DNA of 64,000 bases from Rhina ancylostomus (Eukaryota): positions 15,590,099-15,654,098 of the forward strand of contig JARFYF010000057.1 of the NCBI GenBank assembly GCA_030265395.1, in the 5' to 3' direction. Under the pieces are notes generated by a model. That model did not search any database and was not told where the DNA came from. It saw only the letters and a program-made list of their open reading frames with translations. This document shows, in pieces, positions 27,491 to 59,620 of this stretch. Position numbers and translations under genes: made by a program. Within the stretch, counting starts at the first letter, position 1; every line of letters begins with the position of its first letter.

Positions 27491-27600
27491 AGACTTAAAG
27501 GGTTCCTTGTGCAGATGACTTGGTGCCTGTTCATCACTGAGTGAGGGCCCAAGGCAGACTGTCATAACTTGCCTTTTCACTCATTTTATCTTTGTCAAAG

Positions 27601-27893
27601 GGCCATTTGAGGATGCCTTGAAGCTGCACGATGCCAACTCCTGCAAAAGTGGAGGCCAAGGAACTGGATGCCTGTGGCCAAATCCTGGCTTGGCCAGGGA
27701 CACAGAGGAGGAACAGTTAAAGCGGGAACCCTGGTACCATGGGAAGATCAGTCGGAAAGTGGCTGAGGCATTGCTGGTGCAGGATGGGGACTTCCTGGTG
27801 AGGAACAGCCTGACCAACCCTGGACAGTATGTTCTGACTGGGATGCACAATGGACAAGCAAAGCACCTATTGCTGGTGGACCCTGAAGGAGTG
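27601..27893 (+). CDS. SHC2: SHC2 exon 11 (SH2 domain, first part)
   Basis: tttgtcaaag|(R)PFEDALKLH...EEQLKREPWYHGKISRKVAEALLVQDGDFLVRNSLTNPGQYVLTGMHNGQAKHLLLVDPEGV|gtgagc. Confidence 0.97.
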
Positions 27894-28163
27894 GTGAGCA
27901 ACACTATTGTGGGTGATTTGGTGGGGCTACAATCAGTGTCTGTGGTTTGGGGCAGGGACACATCAGCGGCTGCTCTCTGGAGACCAAACGGGTTAAGATG
28001 TAATATCTCTTTGGCTGAATTGTTGACAATCCCTTCCAGGCTAAACCATAAAGAACAATATCTCATTGCCCTGTCCCCATCCTCTGGATCCTATTCCCTC
28101 TCTCGATGCCCTGTCTATCACTCAGCTTCTCCTGCAGTTTAATGCTCCCTCTTGCCCCTCTAG

Positions 28164-28304
28164 GTGCGGACGAAGGATCTGCTGTTCGAAAGCATCAATC
28201 ACCTGATCAACTACCACCTTGAGAGTGAAGTTCCTATCATTGCAGCTGAGAGTGAAGTCTGTCTGAAACAGGTCATCAAGAGGACACACTCAGTGCTGAT
28301 GTGA
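28164..28304 (+). CDS. SHC2: SHC2 exon 12 (SH2 C-terminus, stop)
   Basis: cccctctag|[46 protein letters not shown]; donor GTGAGT at 28301 overlaps the last codon. Confidence 0.93.
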
Positions 28305-28899
28305 GTGTCGGTGCCACTGAGTTTCTGGTTGATAAACAATCATAATTAGAGTGAGACAAAGATTCAAGCTATGGATTTATACATAGCACTGGGAAAAGCC
28401 GAGGCATGCACCAGCATCTTCCAAAGCTCGACACAGGAGAAATCAGGGAATCTGCACAACAGATCATCTGTGAACATTTGGAGGGTGGAGAGTGAGGGTT
28501 TTTACAGGTAATTGGTGTATATCAGGAGGGAGTTCTGGAGGAAATGCAACAGTATAATTAGCCTGGGCTGTACAGTAAAATTAGGAGTTTGATAGGGAGT
28601 TGGGAGATCCCTTTTAATATTATTCTCAAAACCTGGTAACATTTATGTAGCAGTTTTCGTACAGTTAAATTTGCCAAGATGCTTTACCAGAGGTTAAGGT
28701 TTTGGCAGCTGAAGACCTGGCTATCGACAGCAGAGTGATTAAATTCAAGGATGATCCAAGAGGCTAGAATTGGAGGAGTGTGGAGATTTTGAAATGTTGT
28801 AGGCTGAAGAAGACTTCTGAGATGGGGAAGGGCAAAGAAAACAGGATGGCATCACTATTACCAGCATCGTCACTTATATCAGTAGTCAGCCTAAGTCTC

Positions 28900-29600
28900 A
28901 CCATTGACAGGGTTTAATTAGGGATAGTCAGCACGGGGGAAATCCTCTCTCACAATATGATTGACTTTTATTTGAAGAGGTAACAAACTGATGAAGGCAG
29001 AATGATAGATGTTGTCCATATCAACTCTAGTAAGGCATTTGATAAGGTCTCACATGGTGGGCTTGTCCAGAATATTAAAGCACATGGGATCCAACATGAG
29101 CTGGCTAATTGTATCCAAAATTGGCCAGGTGGTAGGAGGCAGAGGGTAGTGGTGGAAAGATGTTTGTGATTGGAAGTCTGTGACTAGTGGTATACCACAG
29201 GGATCGGTGCTGGGACCTTTGCTGCTTGTGATCTATATTAATGCCTTGGATGTGAATGTAGGAGGTATGATTAGTAAGTATGGTGATGACAAAATTGGTG
29301 GTGTTGTGGATAGTGAGGAAGGTTGTCTAAGGCTACAGCAGGATATGGATCAGATGGAAAGTTGAGTGGAGCATTGGCAGATGAAATTTAATCCTGTCAA
29401 GTGTGATGAGATGCTCTTTGGGAAGCAAAATAGGGGTAGGACGTACACAGTAAATGGTAGTGTGCTAAGGAACGTTGATGAACAGAGGGACTTTGATGTT
29501 TAAGTCCATAGTTCCCCGAAAGTGGTAACACAAGTAGATAGGGTGGGGAAGAAGGCATATGCCATGCTTGCCTTCAAAGGCTATGGCATAGAATAAGCAG
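28900..29600 (+). mobile_element. CR1-type LINE RT fragment
   Basis: SKAFDKVSHG; TSGIPQGSVLGPLLLVIYINALDVNVGGMISKYGDD.. Confidence 0.8.
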
Positions 29601-29624
29601 AGAAGAGGCGTGGGAAATGGGTGA

Positions 29625-30010
29625 GATGCACTTAAGTGCTCTGTAAGCATTGGTGGTCACAGTATTGCTGTACTGAGGTAATGATCAGGGTCGTGCAGGT
29701 TGGTTCAAGAACCAAATGGTTGAAGGGAAGTAGCTGTTCTTGAACCTGATGGTGTGGGACTTCAGGCTTCTGTATCTCCTGCCTAATGGTAACTGTGAGA
29801 AGATGGCAGGGTCCAGATGGTGGGGATCCTTGACGATAGATGCTGCTTTTTTTGAGGCAGAGCCTCATGCAGTTACTTTTGATGGTGGGGAGGGACGTGC
29901 CCATGATGTATTGGGCAGAGTCCAGTACCCTCTACAACATGCAACCAGTCAACAGTACGTCTGCAGAAGTTTGTGAGAGTATTCGGGGACGAGCCGAACC
30001 ACACCACCTT
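29625..30010 (-). mobile_element. Rex1/Babar-type fragment abutting or inserted into the CR1 copy
   Basis: Reverse complement resembles 18200-18520 (..GGAAGTAGCTGTTCTTGAACCTG.., TGGTGGGGATCCTTGACGATAGATGCTGC..). Confidence 0.6.
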
Positions 30011-31831
30011 CAGTAGTGTCTTCAGTGGTCTTGTGAGACTCTTAAAGTCTGGTGCTGAGTTTGGTCACTGGGCAATGCAACATAGTCTGCATTTTAGCAT
30101 AACTGCAGTATCAGTTGTCACAGACATCCCAGAAGTTGGATTGGCCATGTATAGACATTGTCCTGACTGAAATCTATTCAGAAGACCTGTTGACGGTAGA
30201 TTGAAAACAGGTGGGAAATTAATAGGGGTTGAGACCAGGAACTTACTTGGTCGTGATATCAGAGTCCATTCCTTGCAGCAGCGGCTGTCTGCCCCACAAC
30301 ACAGGAGCAACGTTTTAGACCAAAGGGTGATCCAGAGTTCATTTTGTTTCACCATCTCCTTGGGAGGAAAACCTCTTCGCTGGCTTGCCTATGGTTCAGC
30401 AGAAGTTAATCTTTGGCTTGACGCTGCAGATAGCGTCTGGCGTTTCATTGCATGCCTTGCTCTATCTGCGGCAGCAGTGAGAGTGAGTGAATCCTGGTCA
30501 GCATTTATCTTTCAGCACACCAATTCTCAGATGATCAGTCAGTGCTTTATTAAATTTAAAATGCTGGGGAACTGGGGGAGCTGCTGGCAGATACCAGTGT
30601 GGTTCTGGCTGGTTGTCAATTTCAAAATAACTTCACCTTAAAAATATTCTTTGATATATTCAAGACTGGGAAACTTGATAAAATTTGATTCATCGGGCTG
30701 AAAATGGTTTTATTACTATAAGTAAATACTTTGAATCAGAGTGTCAATCCACTTTGAGAGTAACCTGACTTTAAGTTTTGAAAGAATATATGAAAGTATT
30801 TCCTAGTTATGTTTGGCTACAGCTATCCGTTCCCTGGTAAATTAAGGAGAAATTTTGTCTGAAACCTTTCAGAAGTACCTGTTGATGCTGTTGCATTCAA
30901 AGGTGCTGCCTGACCTTAGGACCCTACCCGAAGGCATACAAATGAAAATGGTTAATGGAAAGTCCCAAGAGTGATTGATTTATCCTGGGAAGTGGGCAGT
31001 TTGTGGTTATAGAGTCACAGATTTATAAACACAGATTTATACATCATAGATTTACACAGCCCAACTCATCCATGCTGACCAAGGTGGTTCCATTTGCCTG
31101 CATTTGGCCCATATCCCTCTAAAGCTTTTCTATTTATGTACCAGTCTAAGTGTCTTTTAAGCATAGTAATTGTACCCGGCTCTACAGCATCCACTGGCAG
31201 CTTGTTACATATACCCACNNNNNNNNNNNNNNNNNNNNNNNNNNNNNNNNNNNNNNNNNNNNNNNNNNNNNNNNNNNNNNNNNNNNNNNNNNNNNNNNNN
31301 NNNNNNNNNNNNNNNNNNGTGGCAACACAGGAAGGATGTGGTTGCACCGGAGAAGGTGCAGGGGAGATTGCCTAGATTGGAGGACTTCAGTTGTGGGGAG
31401 AGTTTGATAAGCTGGGCTTGATTTCTCTGGAGTGAAGGAGGCTGAGGGGTGACATGACAGAGGTATTTAAGGCTGAGGCACAGGTGTAGGAGTATCAAAA
31501 ACAAAAGAGCATAGGTTTAAGGTGAGAGGATGGAATTTTAAATGGAATCTGAAGGGTGTCTTTTTACAGAGTGGATGATATCTGGAACGTGATGTTAGAG
31601 GTGGTGGTGGAATCGGATACAATCATTATGTTTAAGAGGCATTTAGACAGCCAATTAAATAGGTAAGGCATAATAGGATATGGTTCCAAAGTAGGCTAAT
31701 GGGATTAGCATAGATGGACAATAAAGATCAGCAATGGACATGGTGAGCTGAAGGACCTGTTTCTTGCTGTCTATCACTCTCAGCATTACTGGTACTCCTG
31801 TTGCTACTAAGTATGTTTCTCTTGTTCACAG

Positions 31832-33125
31832 GTGATACTCAGTATGATTTGTGAATTCCACAGGATTGGGAAGNNNNNNNNNNGGGAAGTTTTGTTCAGG
31901 AGGCTTGGGTCTGGAGTGGATGACTCTGAAGAGCATGGTTGCTTGTTGAATACAGTTGTGGGCAGATTCCAGCTCCACACAGCCTGCTCCCTTACTGCCC
32001 CTACACTCCTGCTGCTTCATTGGGCATGTTGCTTACTGTAGACAGAGAATCATCACACCATTGGAGAACAGGCAACAGGAGTTGACAGAACTTCAAGGTG
32101 ATTATGTAATACAGAATGGCTCGCAATCAAATGGCAAATGAAGGAATCGTAGGAAATGAGGAACTTGTGCTTGGACTGTGCAGTTGCCTGTTACTCAGTA
32201 TATGTTCAGCATATAGTGGACTGGTTTACTGTGCTGGGATTGCACAGCCTGTGCTTTGTGTAAATATCTCTGCATTGAATTATTACATTTTTTTCCCCAC
32301 TCCCTAAAACATCTGAACAGAGCAATGAATGGGTGCAAGAACTGGAGGAGAGACAGGGAAATGGGAGGGAAGGAACAGGGTCAACAGTGGAGGGAGGGGG
32401 AGGAAGCGGGGCTCAACTGGGGAGCAGAGGTATATGTGAAAGATGAGGAATACAAGCAGGTGGCGGGGGGGAAGGGTAGCTTGGTGTGGAATTGCATTGG
32501 GTAAGACTATCCTCAAGGTGCCCACAGCTAATGGTGTGAAGGAATTACACAGCACCTGTAGACCACACCACTGTTCTTGAGGATATACATGTGTGGTGGG
32601 GAAAATGAGGGAGCCTGAACCTGTTGGGAGTTGGAGGGTGGTAGGGGTGGGAGTAGTGGGAATCTTGAGCTGTAAGCTGGTGGATGTCAGCTGGCACTGA
32701 ATCCCATGAGAGGGCTTGGCTCCGCAATGTTATGGTCAGTGATCTGGCACATCTTGTGAATTTGAAATGATTTTGAAAAAACTTCCAGGTTCTCTCCCTG
32801 ATTCTGATCTGTCCTGAGCACATGTATCTACAAACATCTTGAGGGTGTTGACTGGGAACCACAAAGGCAGGCAATGAGACTTTGTAGTGGGAGAACTGGG
32901 GCTCTTGCTGTGGGGCGAGGTATTCTATTTTGTATGAGGGGTGTGGAGTGCATTTTTTTTGGGGTTGGTCAGATGCTAGGGCTTGGGTTGTTTTGCTAGG
33001 AGGGGACTCCATTGGGGATGAAGGGAGTCTGACACTGGTGATATTTATTCTTACGATTGTAAATCAAGCTTTGTGATTCGGATTCTTTTCTTGATCTTTG
33101 AAATAAAAGTGAAATTTGGAAGGTG
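31832..33125 (+). other. SHC2: Probable SHC2 terminal (3' UTR) exon
   Basis: Acceptor tttctcttgttcacag ending 31831; largely unique sequence; AATAAA at 33102-33107 followed by a GT-rich tract; SHC genes carry an intron near the stop codon. Confidence 0.55.
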
Positions 33126-33439
33126 TTCTGTGTTGAGATCACTAACACCACACACACCCTACAGGCAGCTCTGGAGAAATAACCCTCTGCTTTGGCTGCA
33201 ATATTATGCTGCCTGAGACTTCCATTGGGTCTGGGAAGATTTGCTAACAGAACCAGGAGGAACCAGCACTCCTAGACAACCCCAAAACGCTTCCATACCT
33301 GCAGGGTGCTCTAATCACACCATGACCTTGTCCTGTGTTAACCTCATCAGACAGAATCAGAGCTCCAGATTTAGTTCCATCAGGGCTGGATGTTCAAGGT
33401 CATCAGTGATATGGGAAGAGAAATGGGGCAAGAACACTT

Positions 33440-34610
33440 CTGGGCCCCACCTGGCAATATCCAGGGAAGATTGTGTTCAGTGATTCTTTTGAGGAAGTGA
33501 TGAGGAGGATCCATGCAGGTAAAGCTTTTGATGTGGTCAATGTAGATTTTAGCCAGGCCTTTGTCATGGCAAATTGGATCACAAATTGGTTCAGTGGCAG
33601 GAAGGGAATTGTTGGCAGGAGTTTTTTACCAGTGCAAGGCTGCTTCAGTGAGGTTCCACGGGGCTCACCACTCACTCCCTTGACTTTTGTAATATATATT
33701 AATGAGTTAGACTTAAATGTAGATGGCACAATAAAGCAGTTTTCAGATAATACAAAAATTGATCTTGTGGTTGACTGGCAGAAAGCTTCATTCTGCAGAA
33801 GAATATTGATGGGCAGCAAAGTGGCAACTAGAATCCAACCCAGAGAAGCATGATGTAATGCTTTTGCTGAGGTGCATCAAGGGAATATGTAATAAATGGG
33901 AGGATACTGAAATAATATGGAGGAACGAGTGCCCACAGATTCTTAAAAGTAGCCAGACAGGCCAATAAGAAGTTTATAATGACATGCAAGATGTTTTCCT
34001 TTATTAGTCACAGCACAGAATATAACAGCAGGGAGGTATACTCTAGTCAGACCACAGCTGGAACACTGCATAAAGTTCTGATCACCATATTACAAGAAGA
34101 TATGATGCCTGGAGAGAGTGCAGAGAAAATTTTCTGGAATGTTGCCAGGTATGGAAAATTTCAGTTAAGTGGAAAAGTTGGATAAGCAGGCTTGTTTGAA
34201 GCAGAGGGGAGATTTAACTGAGTTTCATAAAATGCAGAATAAGTAGTCAGGACCTACTTCCAGTATGGGCAACAAGACAGCATAATTAAGCAGTGCAACA
34301 ATTAGAAAGGAGGTTAATGTCTTTTTCATTCAGAGAATGGTACAAGAACACAAGAAAATAGGAGCAGAAGCAGGCCACTTGGTCCCTCAAGCCTGCCCAC
34401 CATTCAATGTGACCATAGATGCACTACCTGAAAGAGTGATGGAAGAGAAACCCTTGTCAAATTTATAAAGTACCTGGTTGTGTATTTGAAGAACCTGTGA
34501 CCTGCAGGGCTATGGACCAACTGCTGGAAGATGGGACTAGCTTGGCTACATTTTAATCAGCATGGATTTGATGGGCCAAATGCCCTCATCGTATATTATA
34601 AATTTTCTGT
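33440..34610 (+). mobile_element. Degraded CR1-type LINE
   Basis: DVVNVDFSQAF...SEVPRGSPLTPLTFVIYINELDLNVDGTIKQFSDNTKI RT relic. Confidence 0.75.
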
Positions 34611-35839
34611 GGTCCTGTGAGTGAACCTAACTGTGTCAAAACTGTAAGAATTTGGGCCCCAAAGGTAAGTGGGGTGGTGAGGGAGTTTGTTGGGTAGAGG
34701 TAGGATGCAAATTCCAGACATTCAATCATTCACCACCTTTGAACATTGTGACTTGTCAGATCATGCCATCAAAACATATTCTGCTGATGAGGCTACAACT
34801 GAATATGATAATGGAAACAATGGATTGATAGAAATATTAGGTAGAGAACCTGAGTCCCTCTTCTCAAAATAACCAGCCTTCAACATTCTGTTGGTGCATT
34901 TGGCAGAACCCGAGCCCATGGATGTCTGGGGCAAGGGTTATTGGTGGGGTTCCTTGGGTCCAGGGATTGAATTTCTCCTCCACCTCCTGGTCAAAGTATC
35001 CTGTAATATGTTTGATTGTTAAGGGATAAGAATTAAAATGATCATGGTCCCAGTCCTCCAGAATAATGAGGGCAGAGAAGACTGTGCTGGGTCACAGTTC
35101 CTGCTGTTGGTATCAGCACTGTTGGGCTGCCCTTTGGAGGGAACCAGCCACCTGATTAAAATAATTAGCAGGCAGGAACACTAAAGTTTCATATAAAATT
35201 TTGCGAGGGTTATCTCCCGCAGGCAAAGATGGTGGTTGTAGTTAATCTGCCTCTCCTTATTTGTTTCATAATAATTTACCTTTAAATTATTTATACATGA
35301 GTAGTGTGACAAGATGTAGTGGAAACAAAGAATCATGCTTTGGAACAGTGGAACAGGCCTGAATAGTTGAAAGACCAATAGTTCCTATCTCTTATGTTTA
35401 TACTGCTTCAAGATGCTATACAGCCATTGAAATACATTGAAAAGTGTAGGCACTGTCATAAGTACATCAGCCAATTTGTGTATAAGTAGCCTTGCGACAA
35501 TCCCCACATAATTTGTAAAAGTGATGTTGGAGCTCAGAGCTAATTTGGGGGGGGGGGGTGAAATTCCTGGTCTTGATATTTTAGATATATGCCATGGGAT
35601 ATTTTATCGCAACCTGACAAAACAGACGGGGCCTGGATCCGACATCTCACCCACAACGTGGTACCTCCAAAACAGCAGCACTCCATTGGCACTTGTCAAA
35701 TGTCAAACCCCTGTGTACCTTTTATAAACAATGAACTTTGAACCACGAAGTAAAATAAACTACGGAGATTTGTAGAAGCAGTTCTGAAGTGTGATATCCT
35801 CACTGTCTTAAATCGTTCCCATCACAGTCGTCTGAAGTG

Positions 35840-36210
35840 AGAGGAATTCCCGGGACAAAGGTCCGGCTTCTGTTCTGGGGGGAACATGTTTTGAGGTGAC
35901 ACGAACCGTCGCCCCGCACAAAGATGGCGGCAGCGGCGGTTTCCGGCTGGGCGCCCGGCGCTGAGCCGCCTCTCCCGGATGGGCTCTCACTCACACTCCG
36001 GGAGGCGCTGCTCAAGGTCCTGGAGAATAGGCCCGAGGATCCCGTCTCCTTTCTGGGCGAATACTTCCAAAACCTAGCGGCGGAGGCAGCGGCCTACGAG
36101 GGAACAGCGGAGAAACCGGTTCCGAGACAGCAGGAGGTAACCAGGCGGCGGCATCAGGCCGGCCCGAGGCCTCGCCCAGTGGTGGGGCCATGTTCGACCC
36201 CCGGCCCAAG
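35840..36210 (+). promoter_or_regulatory. TPGS1: CpG island promoter of TPGS1 with a YY1 site over the start codon
   Basis: CpG-rich; AAGATGGCGGC (YY1 consensus) at 35921-35931. Confidence 0.65.
35924..36136 (+). CDS. TPGS1: Tubulin polyglutamylase complex subunit 1, exon 1 (RIIa-like docking domain)
   Basis: MAAAAVSG...LREALLKVLENRPEDPVSFLGEYFQNL...PRQQE|gtaacc. Confidence 0.9.
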
Positions 36211-37165
36211 NNNNNNNNNNNNNNNNNNNNNNNNNNNNNNNNNNNNNNNNNNNNNNNNNNNNNNNNNNNNNNNNNNNNNNNNNNNNNNNNNNNNNNNNNN
36301 NNNNNNNNNNNNNNNNNNNNNNNNNNNNNNNNNNNNNNNNNNNNNNNNNNNNNNNNNNNNNNNNNNNNNNNNNNNNNNNNNNNNNNNNNNNNNNNNNNNN
36401 NNNNNNNNNNNNNNNNNNNNNNNNNNNNNNNNNNNNNNNNNNNNNNNNNNNNNNNNNNNNNNNNNNNNNNNNNNNNNNNNNNNNNNNNNNNNNNNNNNNN
36501 NNNNNNNNNNNNNNNNNNNNNNNNNNNNTCCATTTCCAGCGCTGAAGCTCTTCAGCTAACGATACAGTATGCCGACACCCTCTCCTTTTCAATAACTCTT
36601 TACAAATCATACTGCTTCTAAGATTCTGTAACATTATTTCCATGAACACAGGCCCTCAGTCCAGGGTAATGGAGTTAAGAAACCTTCTGAACTTTGATCA
36701 AAGTGCTAATGGAGCCAGAAACCCACTGACATTTAGAACTGGGTCTGAATGGCTACTGCAGTTGAATAGCAACGTGGAACTCTGGGTTCAATAACTGGGG
36801 ATGAAATAGATTTCTAAGGTTTCTCTTACAGTAATAGAGATATACAGCACAGAAACTGGCCTTTCGGCCCACTGTGACCATGCCGACCTTTGTGTTTATC
36901 TATACATGTCTCATTTACCCACATTTTATCTGGTGCCATCTATGCCTTGGGAATTCAAGTGTTTATCTAGGTCCTGTTTAAATGTTGTAGGAGTGTCTGC
37001 CTCCATCACTGCCTCTGGCAGTGCATTCCTGATTCCAACTGCACTCTGTGTGGAAAAGGTTCACCTTCAGAGCCCCTTTCTCTTCTTGAGGGAGAGCAGG
37101 TATCTGTTGAGGTCTGGGAAGAGTTGGATTGGAGACTAACCAAGTTTCTTTTGCTCTCTCTACAG

Positions 37166-37756
37166 GAGCAGATCTCCAGTTCCCTGAAACAGTTGCTGCT
37201 CTGTCACTACAGTAGACCGGCCTTTAGCAGGAACACAGCTTTGGCCTTCCAGATCCTTAGTTGCCCCACAAACAAGAGGAAAAAGCCTGGTCTCAAAGGC
37301 AGAGTTTACACTGAGCTCCTGAGGCAGATTTGTGGAAGTGCGGGAACTTCTTCCTGCTCCTTGATCCACAAATTGCGATGCTGGGACCATGAGGCTGTTC
37401 CTTTTAGTGTCTTCAGACATGGAGTGCTGACTTGTTTTGTCTTCCTGGACTTTGTGAAGATTTCCAGGAGGCTGTTTGAGGTGGTGGCAGAGTCTGGAGA
37501 GGCCAGTCAGACAGTGTGCCAGGCGCTGCTTGAGGCACTGCAGGAAGCATTGAGTATTAGTGGGTCAGCCAGTGGCACTGGGTGCCTGGNNNNNNNNNNG
37601 GATGCTGCCTCAAAACTCAGCCCTGAGCAGCTTGGGCAGACCATGGAGCAGGCAATGAGGCTGCGGAAAAATGAAACATCCCCGCCAATGACACAGGAGG
37701 AGTTCACTCAGCTCACTGCTCCTCTCTTCATTCAGAGAGTGAAGCCCATGTGTTGA
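37166..37756 (+). CDS. TPGS1: TPGS1 exon 2
   Basis: ctctctctacag|EQISSSLKQLLLCHYSRPAFSRN...KKPGLKGRVYTELLRQIC...DHEAVPFSVFRHGVLTCFVFLDFV...MTQEEFTQLTAPLFIQRVKPMC*; candidate ATTAAA at 38742-38747. Confidence 0.92.
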   Translation, partial: EQISSSLKQLLLCHYSRPAFSRNTALAFQILSCPTNKRKKPGLKGRVYTELLRQICGSAGTSSCSLIHKLRCWDHEAVPFSVFRHGVLTCFVFLDFVKISRRLFEVVAESGEASQTVCQALLEALQEALSISGSASGTGCLXXXXDAASKLSPEQLGQTMEQAMRLRKNETSPPMTQEEFTQLTAPLFIQRVKPMC

Positions 37757-39803
37757 CTGGATAGAAGCAGGCAGTATTTCACTGAATACAAAATGTCCCA
37801 GTCTTGATGGCACCAGATCCCTGCATGTTCCCCCTCAGCCAGTGTTGCACGATGCTGGCATATTGTTGCTTGGCTCAACACAAGTGTGCCGTCAAGGTTG
37901 TGTCCACCCTGAGGCAAACTACACTTTCACTCACCCCCTGCCATCCTCCCCCGTGTCCATGCTCTCTCCTAGGCTGCTGCCTCATCACCATCCCAGTTCT
38001 TGGATTGTGTCTCACTCTCCTTCAAGCACGCCCACCAAATCAATCTTCCAGTCCGCATGCCTGACTTAACATATTAACGTGCTTTATATCTGGGGCAGAA
38101 GAGAGGTTTAGTCAATGCCCTTGCCCTCACCTGCTTAGCGTGTCTCCACCAGCTGGAGGCCACAGTCAGAGTTTTTCTATCCGCTCCCACCTCTTTGTGT
38201 TCCAGAACAGAGCTCCAGTTGAGACATTAGTTACCTTTGTGTGTACTATTTACTGCTTGCCCAGTTTGCCAACATGGTGATTATTCTATTAATTATTTGT
38301 GTTGAGTTCTCATGCTCCTCCCACACTTGCACCTGAGTGGTGTCTCTTCCAGTGAGTGAGTTCTATACACACAAATTCCTTAACCTAGTTGCTCTTGATA
38401 GGGACCAGGATCAAGACTCTCCCTGACCCAGTAGGACTGGAAAGGGGCTAAGAGCAGGAAGCCTCCTTAATGCAGTGGGACAGAATAGGGACCAAGAGGG
38501 GGAACACTGGCTGATCTGGTTCTCTCCCATTCCAAGGGCATGGTACATGATTCTGTCCTCAGCAGTGCATCACAGTGATATAACAGTATAATCTTGTAAA
38601 CACTACCACATGAAAATAAGTCATTAATCTTCAGTAAGCACCTTGTTTGTCTGACTAGAGCTTTATATTGAGGATTGTTGATTATTTGATTGTATCTTGT
38701 TTTGTACCAGTGTTATATATCGGACTCTTGTGTTTTGCAAGATTAAATTAAACAAATTGTATTCACATTTACTGGTTCCTCTCTGTTTTAGACCCACTAT
38801 TTTGACTCTGGTTGTAACATAAACCTGGTCCCAAAGGCACCATGTCTGATGGGTGTGGAATTCTCAAATGGCCTCTTAGACAGTGAGTTTGGACAGGATG
38901 TTTGACCTTGATGTGAGGTGACAGCATCCTAACACCACTTTATTTTCTGAGCCAAGTGCAACAGTCCTTGGAGGTCCATCAGGCTACCTGCCTGGGTGTC
39001 ATTGGGTATTCTTGGTGAAATGCAGCAATGCTCTTGGACTTTCCTTGTAGGTCACTGGATCCCCAGCATCCTATGACAGTTGTAGAGTGGAGGATAAAGG
39101 CCAGGATCCTGTGAGTGTTGCCATCACAGGACACTGGTGCTGAAGAGTTTTTACAGTGAATCAGCTGGCAGTTGTCGGCCTGCCACTGAAGAAACTTTGG
39201 TATCAAAGTAGGAATTTTGGAGCCAGAGGAGGCAACTATCACTTGAGTATGTTCTACCATTCAACAAGATCAGAGGCCTAACTCCATTATTCACCTTTGC
39301 ACCAAACCCCTTAGTATCTTTGGTTATCAAAAGTCTGTCGATTAACAATGAACAATTGACCTGGCATCAATTGTCAATTTGTGCAAGAGAGTTTCAAAGT
39401 TCCAATTTCCTTCGTGAGTAGAAATGTTTTCAAAGTTTAGTCCTGAAAGGTCTGGATCTATATTATTTTGACAAAATGCCTTGTTCTGGACTCCCCAAGC
39501 AGAGGAAAGAGAATCTATCCAATCTATCAGTTCATCTTAATATCTTGAAAACTCTGATTAAATCACCAGTTACCTTAAAAATCCATGGAAGAAAACCCTT
39601 GTTTGTGGAATTTCTCCTCACTTTTTAACCCTTGGAGTCCAGGGATCATTCTGATAAATCTGCTTTGCACTTTCTCCTATCAAGTCAGAGAATTCAAAAC
39701 CTTTTCTCACTCCGTAGTTAAAACATTGTAAGGCAGAGATTTTATTCAGGCTGTGTTCCCAGGATGGGTGAAGGTGAATAAGCTTGCAAGAGGAGTCCTG
39801 AAG

Positions 39804-39858
39804 TCAGAGCACTGAGTGAATCAGTTGCTGCTGTCGGTTTGCAGGCACTCGAAGTCGC
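39804..39858 (-). CDS. Candidate terminal coding exon of the orphan repeat-protein gene
   Basis: - strand acceptor ctccctctgcag|, phase-compatible with the donor at 40053, giving (K)RLRVPANRQQQLIHSVL*; - strand AATAAA at 39746-39741. Confidence 0.4.
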
Positions 39859-40053
39859 CTGCAGAGGGAGCTCAGAACTGAGGTCAATTTTTAAATTCAA
39901 AATCGCTTTTATATATTCAACTTAGATATACAGGGCTCCGTTGACTTGCATTCTCAACTTTTCTCTATGAAGCGTCCTGAAATGTTTTCAAAACGTTGAT
40001 GGAATTCTAGACCTTGCAATCATCTTCCCAAGGGAAGTTTGGAGTTGACTTAC

Positions 40054-41026
40054 TTCTGCCGATCCAGCAAGTCATCAAACCACCGTTTTAGATGCACCTT
40101 TCCCCGCCTTACGGATGTCCTGCGGATGTTGCTCCCCCGTAAACGGTGCCCTCTGTGGTGTGATGTCCTGGATTCTGATCTGCCTCTACCCCGAGGCATA
40201 GTTGGTGACTGAGGGATGTCCCTGGTTAGCACTCTAGAAACGTCAGCCATTCCCACTGGGAAATATTGCAAAGTTTGGTTGTGAGGGATGTCCCTGGCTT
40301 GCACCCTAGAAACGTCAGCCATTCCCACCGGGAAGTATTGCAGTGTTTGGTTGTGAGGGATGTCCCTGGCTCGCACCCTAGAAACATCAGCCATTCCCAC
40401 TGGGAAGTTTTGCAATGTTTGGTTGTGAGAGGTGTCCCAGGCATGCACTCTAGAAACGTCAGCCATTCCCACCGGGAAATTTTGGAACGTTTGGTTGTGA
40501 GAGGTGTCCCAGGCATGCACTCTAGAAACGTCAGCCATTCCCACTGGGAAATTTTGGAATGTTTGGTTGTGAGAGGTGTCCCAGNNNNNNNNNNNNNNNN
40601 NNNNNNNNNNNNNNNNNNNNNNNNNNNNNNNNNNNNNNNNNNNNNNNNNNNNNNNNNNNNNNNNNNNNNNNNNNNNNNNNNNNNGGTGTCCCAGGCATGC
40701 ACTCTAGAAACGTCAGCTATTCCCACCTGGAAATTTTGGAATGTTTGGTTGTGGCCATCCAATTTCATCGAAATGTCTCCTACCCAGGAGGCCCTGCGTG
40801 CTCGGATGGAGGGCTGGACCGCGATAAAATCCATGTCATCATCTGAGGGTAATTCGAAGGAGGAGCAGTCCATTTCGTACTTGTAGAGACTGTCTTCATC
40901 ATCCAACCCTAGGCCGAATGAAGCAAGAATCCTGTCCCCAGCCCACTCCCACCAGGCCAAGAACATATTGACAACAAATATTCTCCAGTCTGGGAACAGC
41001 AGTGTTATCAGTTCCAACAAAGCCAT
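40054..41026 (-). CDS. Uncharacterised protein with 24-aa tandem repeats (main exon; candidate orphan gene)
   Basis: Acceptor tttttaaatcag| at 41075/41074; ATG 41026 in agaATGg context; unique N- and C-terminal ORF segments both join the repeat in the same phase (HNQTxQxFPVGMADVSRVxAxDxx); donor GTAAGT at 40053-40048; the 100-N gap is of unknown size. Confidence 0.6.
40211..40753. repeat. 72-bp tandem repeat (at least 6 copies, array interrupted by a 100-N gap)
   Basis: Units start at 40211, 40283, 40355, 40427, 40499 and 40571 (partial); one further unit at 40685-40753. Confidence 0.97.
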
Positions 41027-41599
41027 TCTATGTTTCCTCCACCCATGCAGCTGAGGCACCCTGGTCCATTGCACCTGATTTAAAAACTGAAAAAAATGAA
41101 TTGAAATTACTTGAGCTTGAATGTAGATCGTTTGCTTTAGTCATAATGTTGGTGTGATGTCGTACAAGGCTAAATCATTGCGGGGGAGGGCAGCAGAAAC
41201 TAACATCTCTTGTCGAAAACCTTGAGTCTGTTCAGAAATGTGGGAAACAGAATGTCTGGGTACTCATTTGGAGTTGACAACATCAACATGAAGACAGTGT
41301 CTCCTTAATTCCCTACATGTAATGGAATACTTTACATTTCCTGAGGTGGATTATAAACAAACAGAAGAGTCAACACGGGAAAGCAGGCAACTAACAAATT
41401 CAAAAATCAATTCCAACCTTTACCTTACTCCCAGGCATCTGTTCTATATATAAAATTGCTCTGAAAGGATTTAATTCCAGCCTGTAACTCGCTTCTGGAT
41501 ACCTATTATTCCATATATAAAGTTGCCAAACCACTTAATTAGATTCTATCCTGTAATTCAATCCATGTATCTGTATTTTTAAATAGAAAACAGCAAAGT

Positions 41600-42860
41600 C
41601 CCTTGTGATTTCACCCTGTACCTCCCTGTATTAATCTTCTAAGGATTTGAAGATGATTTGCTTCTACCTCATATCCATAGGTTCATGGGTGGTTAATGTA
41701 GGATGTACAAACTCTGTCACAATTGGAGCAGGAGGTCTTTGATGGTTTGGTTAGGTGGGTGGGTAGTTTGGGAAGTGGTTTGCTCCTTCCAAAGTTTACT
41801 TCTGTGTGCTCCCGTCGAAGAAGCGGCAGGTTCTCGATGCCATACTGAATGCCCTTCTCNNNNACCCTTCTCCATTTTGAGCGGTCATAGACCAAGGATT
41901 TCTATGAATCAGTAGCAATTTTTGAAGGAGGCTTTAAGAGCATCCTCGTCCACTTGGTAATTTCTTGTCAGAGTAGTGTGTGCACCAGGAAATGACTAAG
42001 TGTAATTTGGGAGGCAGTGGTTGAGAGAAGATGCTGACATTGGTTCTCGTATTCTGACGGTGGATTTGGAGGACTTTGCAGAGACCTGCTGTAGGTAGTC
42101 TGTGTCTCAGAAACCAACAGGAGGACAGGGATCACTGCTGCATGGTATGCCGTGAGCTTTGATCTGGGTTTGAAGTCTGGATCTTCCGACACACTTTTGT
42201 TTAGGTGGCCAAAGGTGTGCTAATTTTATAATTAATTCTGGATTTGTTGAGAAGTGGCTCTTGAGATATGAGAAGTGGTTCATTAATTACATTGTCTCTG
42301 TGGACTTTTATTCCTGGAGTAGCTGGATGAATTGATGTGTAGCACAGACCGGTTGGCAGAAATCTATAGTTTTACAGATGTTTAATACAAGGCTTCATTG
42401 AACAAGTTGAAGATCAGTTTCTTTGCACTAACACACTGCAGCTTGATCACTCTGGCCGGGGTGACCATGGCTCTGTAGTGGAGGCATTGGAATTTAGCTC
42501 CACTCTGTAGGAAGTTTGAAGTTGATGTATAGTATTGAGATGGGAAAGCTTGGGAAAAGTGTTGTGATAATTTGGTCTTGCTTNNNNNNNNNNNNNNNNN
42601 NNNNNNNNNNNNNNNCACCAGCTTGGACTGAAATTGGATCGGTATGGCCTTTTGGTTAAGATTGTGGTTAGCAGCCGTAGATTGAGAAGGATGCTTTACA
42701 GTCTCGTTGACACAGCAAGAGGCTTTTGCGAGGACAAAGGCAATCTGTGGTGGTTGAGGCCACACACTGCATTTCTCTTGGAGTTGTTGTTTATTAAAGG
42801 TCATGTTAATTGCTGTTCCACTTGGATGGAATTCACAATGCGTTTCATTGAAGCACACTG
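41600..42860 (-). mobile_element. Degraded RTE/BovB-like LINE fragment
   Basis: - strand AYHAAVIPVLLLVSETQTTYSR and QQLQEKC relics; same family as 4330-5280. Confidence 0.6.
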
Positions 42861-43339
42861 GTTACCAGTAGGGGTGGTTCAGGAGAACGGTTTTCTCTGT
42901 GGAAGACAGCAGGAAGGTCTCTAGTTACTGCGGTTAGATTCGTCTCCTAGCATGTCCTTTCCTTTGAGATTCCATCCTATTACTTCTCTCCCAGGTATCA
43001 ATTATTTGACATATAAAACACGTTTCTGAATCTTCTCTTATTGAGTTGTCATGTACATTTCAGACAATAACTCACTCCTAGATATTTGTTACTGTGTATA
43101 TTAATCATTCAGTTATTAGCTTCCAGTCTGCAATATACTCCCAAGTATCACTTATTGTATTTATAAACCCTCAATTCCCACACCAAATCAAATACTTAGA
43201 TTTAACTCTGTGATCTAATTCTGGGTGTCTGTTATTCCGAGTCTTTCATTTAGATTCAACTAGTTTTTGTTTCTGGATTTTCATCTCTCTGCACCTAACT
43301 ACCTCTGCCCTCCCTTATGGGGTGATAGAGAGAAACACC

Positions 43340-43610
43340 ATGGAGATAGACCCTTCAGTCACCTTGTCCACACCAACATCAACCACCCATTTACACTAAT
43401 CCTACCTAAATCCTACATTCCCATTAACTCCTGCAGATTCTAACAGTCACTGAGGGGCAATTTACAGTGGCCACTTAACCTACATGTATTTTTTGGACTA
43501 TGAGAGGAAACCCACACAATCACAGAGAGAACATTCAATCTCCACACAGACAGCACCCAAGGTCAGGATTGAATCTGGGTCTCTGGCACTGTGAGGCAGC
43601 AACTCTAATG
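43340..43610 (-). mobile_element. tRNA-derived V-SINE/HE1-like SINE
   Basis: Reverse of ..GCTGCCTCACAGTGCCAGAGACCCAGATTCAATCCTGACCTTGGGTGCTGTCTGTGTGGAG.. Confidence 0.65.
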
Positions 43611-44479
43611 GATTAGAACCCACTGATTATAATTTCTGCCTATACTAATTCTTTAAGTACTCTGTAATATAATCTCTCCCCTCCCTTAGTTTACAGACAA
43701 CAACTCACTTCTAGGTATTTGTTGTTCTTTATAATGCCCATTGGATTAGCTTCCAGCCTGTAACCAACTCCTGGATGTCTATCATTCCATATATAAAGCC
43801 ACTGAACCTCTTGATGAGATTATAACCTTAACTTCTATGTATTTATTATTCTATATATGAATCCTTCAAACATTTCATTGCAATTCTAGCCTATAACTCA
43901 TTTCCAGGTGTCTGTCTTTTTTTCTGAATATAACCATGATCCTGGCTATCCAAAGGCCAAGAGTCGACTGCAGCTTCCACCTGAATTATTTTAAATCGAA
44001 CTCCAGCCCCACCTTTCCAATCCCTCCATCAGATTCCAGTCAGTAGATTTGTTAATCTATATTATCTGCCTCTGCTGGATTATGTTTTAAAAGCAAATGG
44101 AACAAAAGAACCCTACAAATGCTGTAAATCTGAAACAAAAACAGAAGATGCTGGAAATACTCAGCAGATTACTCAGCATCTGTGGTAAGGGAAATAGTTG
44201 GCCCTCTATGTTAATACTGTTTGCCATTTACAAGTTTAGCAAGACTAATGGGAAATAGCACGGAAGCAGAACAAATTGTAGGGTCCTTTCAAAGAACCGA
44301 TACAGTCAAATGGCTCTGGTCATTTCCTACAGTTTTGACAAAAGATCATTGATCTGAAACATTTACCCTCTTTCTCTGCCCAATTATTACTGCCGAACTC
44401 GAGCAGTTCTAGCATTTTCAATCTTCATTTCAGTTTCCAGCATCCTCTAGTAATTGCCATTTACATTTCTCACTGTCCA

Positions 44480-45300
44480 GAGTGAAACTACATATCCCAG
44501 AATAAATCACGCGCTTTCAGGAACAGTCACTTCAGACGCTGATGGTTATTGGCTGCCGATATCCGATTCGCTGGGACACAAATGGCTCTATGATTGGTCG
44601 CTTTGCCATCAGTAATCTGATTGGGCAAGTGGCCCTTCTGATTTGATACAGTTGTTATTCTGCCCACTGATTGGCTCTGCGCGGTGGTGGCCTCTGATTG
44701 GACATATTATGATTTGCTACTTCGTTGCTGCGTGCCGATTGGCCGTGGCAGGTCACGGGGCATTGTACCCAGGCAGCGGCCGGACAGCGGCCTCAGCGCG
44801 ACTCCACTGCGGGGCTGAAAGGGCCTTAATTGCGGCCTCCAGCCACTCGACGTCGGGGCTGAAGGGCCTGTCCTGCGGTCTCCCAGCGATTACTATAGCG
44901 GCGCCAAAGCGGCTCCCCGTACCGACACTCTCCATACCCGGATCCGGCCCTGCGGCCTGTCTCTCTTCAGTGGCCGCGACCTCGCGTTCCCCCCCCTCCA
45001 CCCTCCCCGGTGGCGCCGGGCCCCGGGCGGTCATGGCTCACCAGCAGACCAGCAGCTCCCAGAAGGCNNNNNNNNNNNNNNNNNNNNNNNNNCAGGAGGA
45101 GCCTGTCGAGGGTTTCCGCATTACCCTGGTTGATGAATCCGACCTGTATAATTGGGAGGTGGCGATCTTCGGGCCGCCCAACACGCACTACGAGGGTGGC
45201 TACTTCAAAGTAAGGCCGCGGTTGCAAGAAGACTGGGACTCAGATTGGAGAACTGTGTGAACTACAGGGAGCCGGTGGTGGGGGTGAAATGGGGATTTGG
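44480..45300. promoter_or_regulatory. CDC34: CDC34 CpG-island promoter with ZNF143/SBS motif and six inverted CCAAT boxes
   Basis: ACTACATATCCCAGAAT at 44487-44503; ATTGG at 44548, 44593, 44620, 44670, 44697 and 44738. Confidence 0.75.
45033..45209 (+). CDS. CDC34: Ubiquitin-conjugating enzyme E2 R (CDC34) exon 1
   Basis: MAHQQTSSSQKA[gap]QEEPVEGFRITLVDESDLYNWEVAIFGPPNTHYEGGYFK|gtaagg; 177 bp; CDC34 rather than UBE2R2 assigned by synteny with TPGS1 and SHC2. Confidence 0.88.
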
Positions 45301-57700: not shown

Positions 57701-59099
57701 CTACTAATGGCAGAGACATTGCAATGGCTATCATCCACAAAATATACTGAATTTACTCGCCTAGGCTGTTCCTAAAATGCAACCCAATTCCATGGCTTCT
57801 TCCACCAATAACAATAGGGGCTCTGGACACAAAGGAAAAGCACATTCCACTCCAAGTTGCACACTAACCTTATGTCGAAATATATCATGGGTTCTTTAGA
57901 TAATACTGGAACTCTCTGCTCAAAAGCACAGGACTGAAGCAGTTCAAGAAGGTGGCTTGGCACCGCCTCAATGGCAACTATGGATGGACAATAAATGATG
58001 GCCTTGTCTGTGACAGCCTTGTTGGATAATTTTGTTTTACAACTTAATGGACAACTATCAGTGCAAGTATCTTGACTGATTCCCTAATCCTAGCTAATGA
58101 CAAATATTGTCTGGGTTGATTGATTTGGAAGGAATTTAAGGCTATTGCTTTCATTTAAATCATCTAAAACTGTGAATAATCTTCGTTATCCTGTTATTAA
58201 ATGCGTTAAATGGGGTGCATTAGGGGTCATGTGTCATTGTCCTCATTGCCCTGTTGGGAAAGCTCAACTATACTTCACCTTAAATACAAGTTTAAGAGCT
58301 AGGAAAGGTTGGAGTACTCGTTAATGCTCTCTATAGTTGATAAGGTAGTAAAACAATCATTCACGCACATTTTATCATTACATTGTTATTAATTATAACA
58401 ACGTATTCAAATTTCAGGGTCACCGACAACAGCTGGAAAACATATAATTCTCTCTGCTTTTCTACTATTCTCCACAAGAGGAAGTGAGATACCCCCAGAA
58501 ACTCGGGTCTCCATTGCATTCATTGGATCAACAAGCCTGTGCAATAAAAGATGTTCCAAAGACGTGCTGGTAGATAAATTGACTTCTGCGAATTTTCCTT
58601 TAATGTAAATTAATTGTAAAAAGAATCAAAGGCCAATTGATGGGTGTGTGAGAGAAAAAGTGGCAGGGGTAATGGAAAACGAGAAGTGGAAATAGGACAA
58701 ATGCCTCACTTCACCGGGAGCTGGCATAGCTCAGATGGGATAAATGGCCTTTTTATACGGTTAGAAGTGTAGGATAAGGATATCTAATAGGAAATGTAGG
58801 GATCTTCTCTGTACGTCCCTGACATGTCACCTGGATGCTGCCTGTCAGATTTATGATACTCCAAAGGCATTTATCGATCACATTTTTTCGGGAGGTAAAG
58901 CTACAACTGGGGGTATCCATGTGGGACCGAATTTGCTCCTTTACTCAGAAGGTTGTTAATCTCCACCGCAGGGGGCTCACTGGATGCCGAGGGAAATGAA
59001 GGAATTTGGGGGTCGGGTGGGACGTTTTCTTGAGGTAAAGGACCAGCCGTGACCTTACTGAACAGTGCAACAGGCTCGGGGGTTGCACAGCCGATTGCT

Positions 59100-59620
59100 G
59101 CTCCTATTTCTTAAACGTGCTGGGTTTTCCATCCATTGGTGGGATCCGAGATGGGTGGGGGGTCAGTGCGGAGGGAGCGTCTGTCGGCTCCGGCCTCCGG
59201 TCAGCCCGCGACTGGAACCGTTGGCGGTAACCCGAGCCGCCGTCCGAGCCTTGTGGGGAAGGTGCTGGCTGGTCCTCTGCTCCGATTGGCTGGTGGGAGA
59301 CCCAGCTCGCGGAAGGGTTAGATTGCCGTACCGGAAGCGGGGCGCCGCCGGGGCCGAGGAGCCGGAACCGAGAGACGGAGCGCGGAGCGGAGCGCGGGTC
59401 CCGGGCCGGAGCGGCGGGTGAGAGCGGGGCCTCGGGCCGGCCGGGTGGGGGTGGTGGAGAGGGCGGCGGCTCAGCGTGCACTTCAGGCCTGGCTCGGCGC
59501 GGGAAACTAGCACCGCCCCCTGCCCCCCCCCATAAGGCGTGCCGCCCCCCCCCCCCACATTACTGCTTCCCGCCCCCTCCATTCGCCGTCAAACTCCCGT
59601 CGGCCCCAATGTCTCCCACC
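59100..59620 (+). promoter_or_regulatory. CpG-island promoter and probable non-coding first exon (ending about 59417) of an unidentified gene
   Basis: CpG-rich; inverted CCAAT (GATTGG, about 59284), ETS/GABP site CCGGAAGCGG at 59331-59340; donor-like CGG|GTGAGA at 59418; no ATG in the exon. Confidence 0.6.

Follow-up and report, generated by a model that had tools for sequence, protein, structure and literature searches.

The window analysed here is a 64,000-nucleotide stretch of the Rhina ancylostomus genome (GenBank assembly GCA_030265395.1, contig JARFYF010000057.1, positions 15,590,099 to 15,654,098 of the forward strand). Between TPGS1 and CDC34 it carries a single-copy open reading frame (ORF) on the minus strand, which runs from an ATG at 41026 to a TAA at 40050 and encodes at least 288 amino acids (aa), counted across a run of 100 N. 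An earlier note, made from the sequence alone, had placed an undescribed gene here, and that proposal holds up: an intact homologue aligns from start to stop, conservation along the frame is uneven, the locus is single copy, and it matches no transposon or virus. It is therefore most probably a real, unannotated and lineage-restricted gene. The explanation we prefer as a whole, in which the gene encodes a protein with a membrane-surface anchor and a disordered tail regulated by protein kinase A (PKA), is more tentative, and we put its probability at roughly 0.45.

The part of the frame ahead of the gap reads from the ATG into the N run, and the part behind it reads from the N run to the TAA at 40052-40050. 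That these two ORFs are one frame of at least 288 aa split by a gap, as the earlier note had read them, is very likely. Six 72-bp units are visible, in agreement with the minimum of six repeats claimed; one starts at 40753, before the run, and five after it (40571, 40499, 40427, 40355 and 40283), and Tandem Repeats Finder reports a period of 72 with 5.2 copies at 91% on one side of the gap. The flanks of the run share a 10-nt overlap and the unit spacing across it is 182, that is, 100 + 10 + 72; removing the N's and the overlap leaves exactly one unit length, and the frame is therefore in register. The run is most likely an assembly gap. Of three sequencing runs compared (X1, X2 and X3), none has a contig that bridges the gap, and units hidden within it are not counted; in an X1 contig, unit 1 runs directly into the start of the next unit (13 loose letters). 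Flank overlaps, of 19 and 21 nt, also occur at two of the five other 100-N runs in the window (22420 and 48865), which resemble placeholders where hardly any sequence, or none, is missing. Because three of the six reading frames of the repeat unit are stop-free, the openness of the array proves nothing by itself, and the correct frame is fixed by homology. Other elements that had been read from the letters are likewise present: the hydrophobic, Trp-rich start that follows the ATG, the acidic block, the PKA-type RRAS motif (residues 77-80), the Arg-rich tail, GTAAGT as a sequence (40053-40048), AATAAA at 39746, and an N-Q-T sequon in 6/6 units.

The homologue, P0001, was the sole match among 32 candidates (E 2e-35) in a word search that compared residues 1-114 with 5.8 billion proteins and covered lengths of 146-466 aa. 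It is an unnamed Logan gene call of 165 aa, in a cluster of 1 and on 2 contigs. The alignment is collinear from Met to stop, with 96/164 residues identical, start and stop positions shared, and gaps that keep the frame. Both proteins have the same order of parts and have RRASW, N-Q-T, the MADVSRV core and a C-terminal helix in common; unlike the window protein, P0001 carries one 21-aa copy of the repeated segment rather than at least six of 24 aa, and it has neither the three-residue insert nor the Pro. Identity falls from 34/39 at the N-terminus to 62/125 over the rest (Fisher p 3e-5), the latter including the acidic block (12/26), repeat core (14/19), basic tail (17/39), and last helix (8/16), so that constraint appears concentrated in residues 1-39. 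When 3000 neutral simulations were run to 60% identity, about 1% stayed free of stops, 0/3000 kept the frame at the assumed indel rate, and 0.3% reached 31/39 at the N-terminus. Together with the conservation contrast, these simulations point to purifying selection on the frame in the deep comparison with P0001.

Additional searches found little else. A word search of proteins of 90-289 aa yielded a match in only 1 of 26 candidates, one of 30-41 aa proteins yielded no homologue, and P0001 was again the sole match when 1.84 billion representatives were searched with a profile; lengths of 42-89 and above 466 aa were covered by the representative search only, in which relatives more than 50% identical to P0001 would sit hidden within its cluster. 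With that single match in 1.84 billion representatives, the protein is an orphan that has no detectable homologue outside its lineage, and it carries no name in any searched library. The locus occurs once in its own genome at both the DNA and the protein level. Pfam gave only weak matches far below cut-off, NCBIfam no family, Rfam nothing at the locus, and a profile search of the PDB 0 matches at E 10 for the non-repeat parts; Foldseek found no structure match for either of two low-confidence models, and ESM Atlas returned no usable match, which bears neither on absence nor on novelty. Viral contigs (0/11 candidates) and metagenome contigs (0/246) were also negative. Neither multiple copies nor homology to a mobile element was found, and the match to a known transposon or endogenous retrovirus that the earlier note named as a refutation did not turn up in Pfam, the representatives or the viral contigs.

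Residues 1-39 would fit an in-plane or hairpin membrane anchor. N-terminal 18-mers have a mean hydrophobicity of 0.8-1.1, charged residues and 4-5 Trp, and the segment is interrupted by Pro-Asp. No 19-residue segment looks favourable for spanning: the best 19-mers sum to +6.2 and +5.5 when scored for insertion without regard to position, and the Kyte-Doolittle maxima are 1.63 and 1.42. The membrane-anchored protein suggested earlier is plausible as a surface or monotopic anchor rather than as a spanning helix. AlphaFold2 predicts a helix near each terminus and a middle region of low confidence. In the P0001 model, residues 2-10 and 14-36 are helical with a predicted local distance difference test score (pLDDT) of 58-79, and a C-terminal helix is present in both models at 71-86. 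FFAT, RVxF, BH3, CAAX, KKXX and A-kinase anchoring protein (AKAP) patterns have no match in the window protein or P0001, and this includes a consensus for the RII-binding helix of AKAPs. Two candidates, an LIR-like (LC3-interacting region) FIAV and a furin site, were dropped, each being present in one protein only; the furin-type R-x-R-R lies at residues 75-78 of the window protein, is absent in P0001, and so is not a conserved site.

Several known proteins offer partial likenesses. Small PKA-regulated disordered proteins and membrane AKAPs combine a membrane anchor, an R-R-x-S site and a terminal amphipathic helix, to which the putative anchor, the RRAS motif and the predicted C-terminal helix correspond here; unlike them, the window protein lacks RII-binding, RVxF and FFAT motifs, and there is no homology. 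CGI-58 is directed to lipid droplets by a Trp-rich region at its N-terminus (PMC13314531). Like viperin, it belongs with proteins that have a Trp-rich or amphipathic surface anchor at the N-terminus, and the segment described here resembles such anchors in being a short hydrophobic, Trp-rich helix with a few charged residues and no clean spanning helix; this is a lead only as to how the segment might work. CGI-58 and viperin differ in having folded enzyme domains in place of a disordered tail, and no sequence relation to either was found.

What the sequence shows is an open frame that continues in register over the gap, one intact homologue, conservation that varies along the length, and a single copy; from these we infer the remaining steps as follows. 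The gene would be transcribed from the minus strand; the CCAAT-rich promoter of CDC34 may drive it, and two upstream ATGs would damp translation. The conserved first 39 residues would hold the protein on the cytosolic side of a membrane by means of a Trp-rich helix, with in-plane or hairpin insertion into the endoplasmic reticulum, a lipid droplet or the mitochondrial outer membrane. The remainder would be cytosolic and mostly disordered, and the sequons would then go unused. Phosphorylation of Ser80 by PKA would then switch the binding of partners by the tail, whose binding elements may be the short MADVSRV motif, the basic stretch and the C-terminal amphipathic helix. The product would thus be a small membrane-tethered adaptor switched by phosphorylation, and the 72-bp array a later, largely tolerated expansion that multiplies a binding site or lengthens a spacer. 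Provided that a gene is present, we give this mechanism an even chance.

Since P0001 carries the segment once, the modular array likely arose afterwards by tandem expansion and does not define the protein. The label of a modular 24-aa-repeat protein, as originally given, is apt for this lineage and does not extend to the distant homologue with its single 21-aa copy. The three extra residues of the window unit resemble a 9-nt local duplication. Gln of P0001 is kept in unit 1 and is Pro in units 2-6; Arg of P0001 is kept in units 4-6 and is Trp in units 1-3. This pattern is the one expected if one copy expanded by unequal exchange, a direction suggested by comparison with a single outgroup. The copying was likely recent. 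X1 and X3 likewise carry several units, and in the shared repeat core one of three between-unit variants changes the residue. The homologue with its one copy and the window form with its six make a natural before-and-after pair for the origin of a repeat protein.

The array also resembles leucine-rich repeats (LRRs). Against the PDB (phmmer), five units gave 55 matches with a best E of 5e-10, and two units alone gave E 0.006, array E-values being inflated by repetition; by their names or by our reading, 51 of the 55 are LRR proteins, the others being Tako8 (two matches), BB0689 and one unclear case. Each of the 5 units fits 8/9 positions of a 24-residue LRR pattern that was chosen after the fact and allowed Trp (shuffle p 5e-5 to 2.5e-4). 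The likeness to the 23-24-residue LRRs of MIK2, GSO1, LRRD1 and SHOC2 consists of a 24-residue period, Asn 9, Pro 16, Asp 5, and hydrophobic residues at 1, 12, 15, 19 and 22; the array differs from LRR proteins in its Trp or Arg at position 4, and in having no Leu-rich core, no caps and no Pfam match. The 24-aa tandem units are of LRR length (20-30 residues), which P0001 does not share, and they match the variable segment xxLPxxLxxLxx through F15, P16, M19 and V22 in units 2-6, with Gln for Pro in unit 1. The best own-genome LRR match to the array, L018 (G000:C84:38052842-38056042), is a 518-codon single-exon frame of 23-residue intracellular LRRs that we take to be LRRD1-like. The conserved segment of LRRs reads LxxLxLxxNxL or LxxLxLxxCxxL, where L stands for any of Leu, Ile, Val and Phe (PMC4030839), and the same four residues are required at position 4 (PMC4030839, PMC9525666). 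The array departs from it, with Trp or Arg at position 4 in all units and Thr at position 6 in half, and satisfies 3-4 of 5 positions.

Profile and structure comparisons also fall short of a family assignment. Pfam LRR families do not match the array, and the NCBIfam XopAC/XopAE models score 29.5 and 26.4 bits against cut-offs of 450 and 600. A profile of 157 own-genome LRR units gives the array units -11 to -15 bits, compared with a median of +35 for true units (shuffle p 0.04-0.17). When 24 own-genome LRR frames chosen without bias served as targets, most of which belong to a different LRR class, 35/300 shuffled arrays equalled the real one; a first shuffle test (0/300) was discarded because its single target had been picked by the query. 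The single-sequence AlphaFold2 model of the array places strands elsewhere than at LRR positions 3-5 (pLDDT about 47-49), Foldseek finds nothing for it at E 0.001, and P0001 has no PDB match at E 10. Assignment of the array to the LRR family was accordingly rejected: it fails at position 4, matches no curated profile, and has a homologue without the likeness. Either the likeness is due to chance or it emerged from the duplication, and the latter is suggested by a D-x-x-H-N motif that arises at the unit junction only.

At the ends of the gene, the proposed splice sites fared less well than the frame itself. The acceptor put at 41074 has a different -3 base in 2/2 relatives, its AG is changed in X1 (where the nearest AG to the 41075 acceptor is shifted by one base), and X1 reads through it unspliced. 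If an intron exists, the CAG at 41089-41087, with no listed difference in relatives, is the better acceptor candidate. The phase-compatible last exon is not borne out either, as X1 is unspliced from 39779 to 40271 and P0001 stops at the TAA that the donor overlaps. In 39700-44800 no minus-strand donor scores higher than the one at 40053 (simple matrix), and a splice from 40053 to 39858 would take out the stop and extend the protein by 17 residues; spliced and unspliced 3' ends are both possible. Upstream of the main ATG, a 13-codon frame in good context starts at 41069 and stops one base before it, and a 12-codon frame, also in good context, starts at 41046 and overlaps it; the earlier note mentions neither. 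Just upstream of the X1 CDC34 transcript start (44641), at 44548-44742, the minus strand carries six CCAAT boxes spaced 27-50 bp apart, which mark a candidate head-to-head promoter for both CDC34 and the new gene. Beyond them, at 44787-44888, lies a 44-bp tandem repeat.

Three sequencing runs bear on variation and transcription. X2 is identical where differences are listed, and is possibly the source sample and hence not independent; X3 and X1 are other organisms, about 2.5% and 5% diverged. Among the 40 of 55 differences listed for 39700-41160, 23 fall within the frame (7 synonymous, 16 nonsynonymous, 0 stops); the majority of these lie in the tail and array, and residues 1-30 lack X1 cover. 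All 4 indels of the two relatives lie outside the ORF, which supports the gene weakly, as two of them are adjacent. None of the runs listed for the locus is on record as RNA. X1, RNA-like by guess, shows TPGS1 spliced at GT..AG and a long CDC34 contig with the first exon only. It covers the locus in pieces from 39779 to 42415, unspliced and at a depth of 3-8. This cover ends 33 nt short of AATAAA, and the depth is zero immediately past that end, as it is at 39097-39423 and over the readable part of the TPGS1 intron; the gaps in X1 at 40936-41016, at the N run and at 43675-44001 were excluded from exon placement. This cover fits a weak transcript that ends near the AATAAA at 39746.

A number of observations weigh against our preferred explanation. 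The 7/23 synonymous substitutions listed are indistinguishable from neutral (about 0.25-0.29 expected, p 0.52), and between-unit variants, at 6/18 synonymous and an expected fraction of 0.26, are likewise near neutral. Only one distant homologue is known, and it was detectable only because its frame is open. Both AlphaFold2 models are of low confidence (mean pLDDT 56 and 47), and the two upstream ATGs would hinder translation. X1 is RNA by guess only, from unstranded contigs at low depth; it is unspliced over old repeats upstream of the frame, which suggests nascent RNA, and the cover may be nascent or background transcription.

Much of this could be taken to mean that there is no working gene, and that a decaying or incidental frame has a front end conserved for a DNA- or RNA-level reason. 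Near-neutral substitution among close relatives, weak unspliced RNA cover, the upstream ATGs and absence from all protein libraries except one Logan gene call would all follow. We consider this quite unlikely, given a 59% identical homologue that shares start, stop and frame-keeping gaps, motifs common along the whole length, the neutral simulations, the covered frame of two relatives without stop or indel, and no Rfam match. That the frame is instead part of a larger spliced gene, either on the model of the earlier note or with further coding exons upstream, seems just as doubtful: a strong donor overlaps the stop, a pyrimidine-rich acceptor lies at 39859, the frame stays open for 16 codons upstream of the ATG, to 41074, and a conserved donor would equally explain why P0001 ends at that TAA, yet X1 shows neither joint nor loose end at either site, the acceptor at 41075 is changed in X1, and homology starts at the Met. 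Derivation from a transposon or virus is extremely improbable. In its favour, the coding part has no evident introns, the tail is basic, and old interspersed repeats lie 0.3-1.2 kb upstream; a single copy in DNA and protein and no Pfam, viral-contig or (P0001 aside) representative match in 1.84 billion largely refute it at that sensitivity.

Other alternatives accept the gene and concern its product. A secreted or luminal precursor would start at its N-terminus with a signal or type II anchor, continue with an acidic pro-piece, be cut after Arg-Arg and carry glycosylated repeats. The Arg-Arg pair occurs in both proteins, the furin-type site in the window protein and the N-Q-T sequon also in P0001, and the order of hydrophobic, acidic, dibasic and basic parts resembles that of peptide precursors. 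We nevertheless judge it unlikely: P0001 has no P4 Arg and no furin match, there is neither a basic n-region nor an uninterrupted hydrophobic core, 4-5 Trp and 34/39 conservation are unusual for a signal peptide, the units are not separated by a dibasic site, and in both proteins the residues in question also read as a complete PKA consensus. Compatible with the anchor, finally, is an LRR-like solenoid born by duplication of a non-repeat segment and offering a new binding surface. The predominance of LRRs among the PDB matches (51/55), the 8/9 pattern positions and the junction motif speak for it; the failure at position 4, no Pfam LRR, negative unit-profile bits, 35/300 shuffles, the strands that AlphaFold2 places elsewhere, the blank Foldseek search and a P0001 without PDB match make it decidedly unlikely. 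Its specific version, in which a 21-residue non-repeat segment gained three residues, was copied at least 6 times, and acquired an LRR-register solenoid with a new binding surface through the junction and the Gln-to-Pro change, is given a slim chance. If the array does fold in this way, a common solenoid fold would have arisen independently in a case that can be tested directly; otherwise the locus is a well-supported but ordinary fast-evolving orphan gene. The anchored, PKA-switched adaptor remains the explanation that we favour, and the features on which it draws are listed in Table 1.

Table 1. Features of the TPGS1-CDC34 interval, in window coordinates (UTR, untranslated region).
Feature	Position	Strand	Remark
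Residues 1-39 with ATG, hydrophobic and Trp-rich	40910..41026	-	34/39 identical to P0001; putative membrane anchor
Acidic block and linker, RRASW = PKA consensus (Ser80)	40754..40909	-	RRAS at 77-80 in both proteins
Repeat unit 1	40685..40753	-	Gln as in P0001, versus Pro in units 2-6
100-N run within array, most likely an assembly gap	40585..40684	.	10-nt flank overlap, 72-bp register
Units 2-6, five complete 72-bp / 24-aa units	40212..40571	-	LRR-like register
Basic tail, C-terminal amphipathic helix and TAA (40052-40050)	40050..40211	-	PRGRG and HRLRGSN common to P0001
Possible last intron, unproven (GT at 40053, AG at 39860-39859); else 3' UTR	39859..40053	-
AATAAA poly(A) signal	39741..39746	-	X1 cover ends at 39779; 3' region single copy
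Two upstream out-of-frame ATGs	41028..41069	-	41069 and 41046
Six CCAAT boxes at CDC34 promoter; candidate head-to-head shared promoter	44548..44742	-	Putative
TPGS1, two exons, convergent with new gene	35924..37756	+	Pfam RIIa/Dpy-30, TPGS1_C; GT..AG joint in X1
CDC34-type E2 enzyme, first coding exon, divergent from new gene	45033..45209	+	Pfam UQ_con

The gene places a protein without known family at the junction of an SHC-type gene, TPGS1 and CDC34, where we know of no gene between TPGS1 and CDC34 in mammals. Literature searches on TPGS1-CDC34 synteny found nothing on the locus, supplements and most subscription papers being outside their coverage; those on TPGS1 with CDC34 found no fish study by title, and those on cartilaginous fish orphan genes and on de novo LRR origin found no study and nothing related, respectively. 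The available part of the main text of a paper on chondrichthyan-specific genes mentions neither TPGS1 nor CDC34.

The UQ_con neighbour is presumably CDC34, a name taken from its sequence and the gene order. On the other side, the 3' UTR of TPGS1 is about 1.06 kb long and ends at 38816 in X1, with ATTAAA at 38742, and two in-frame stretches of TPGS1, 9 and 12 nt long, are missing in a relative. An SH2-domain exon on the plus strand (27519-27893) is consistent with SHC2, which we assume from gene order, and a CpG-rich stretch near 335-823 is probably the first exon of this SHC2-like gene. In human, the SHC2-TPGS1 interval holds ODF3L2 and MADCAM1; no long frame like either is evident at 28100-35900 in the list of frames of at least 110 aa, a list that stands in for a proper search. 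Old interspersed repeats of 70-82% identity and dozens of copies, with unspliced X1 cover, lie at 41410-41630 and 42020-42290. Finally, a CpG-rich, promoter-like region downstream of CDC34 (59000-59600) includes a 31-bp tandem repeat at 59376-59440.

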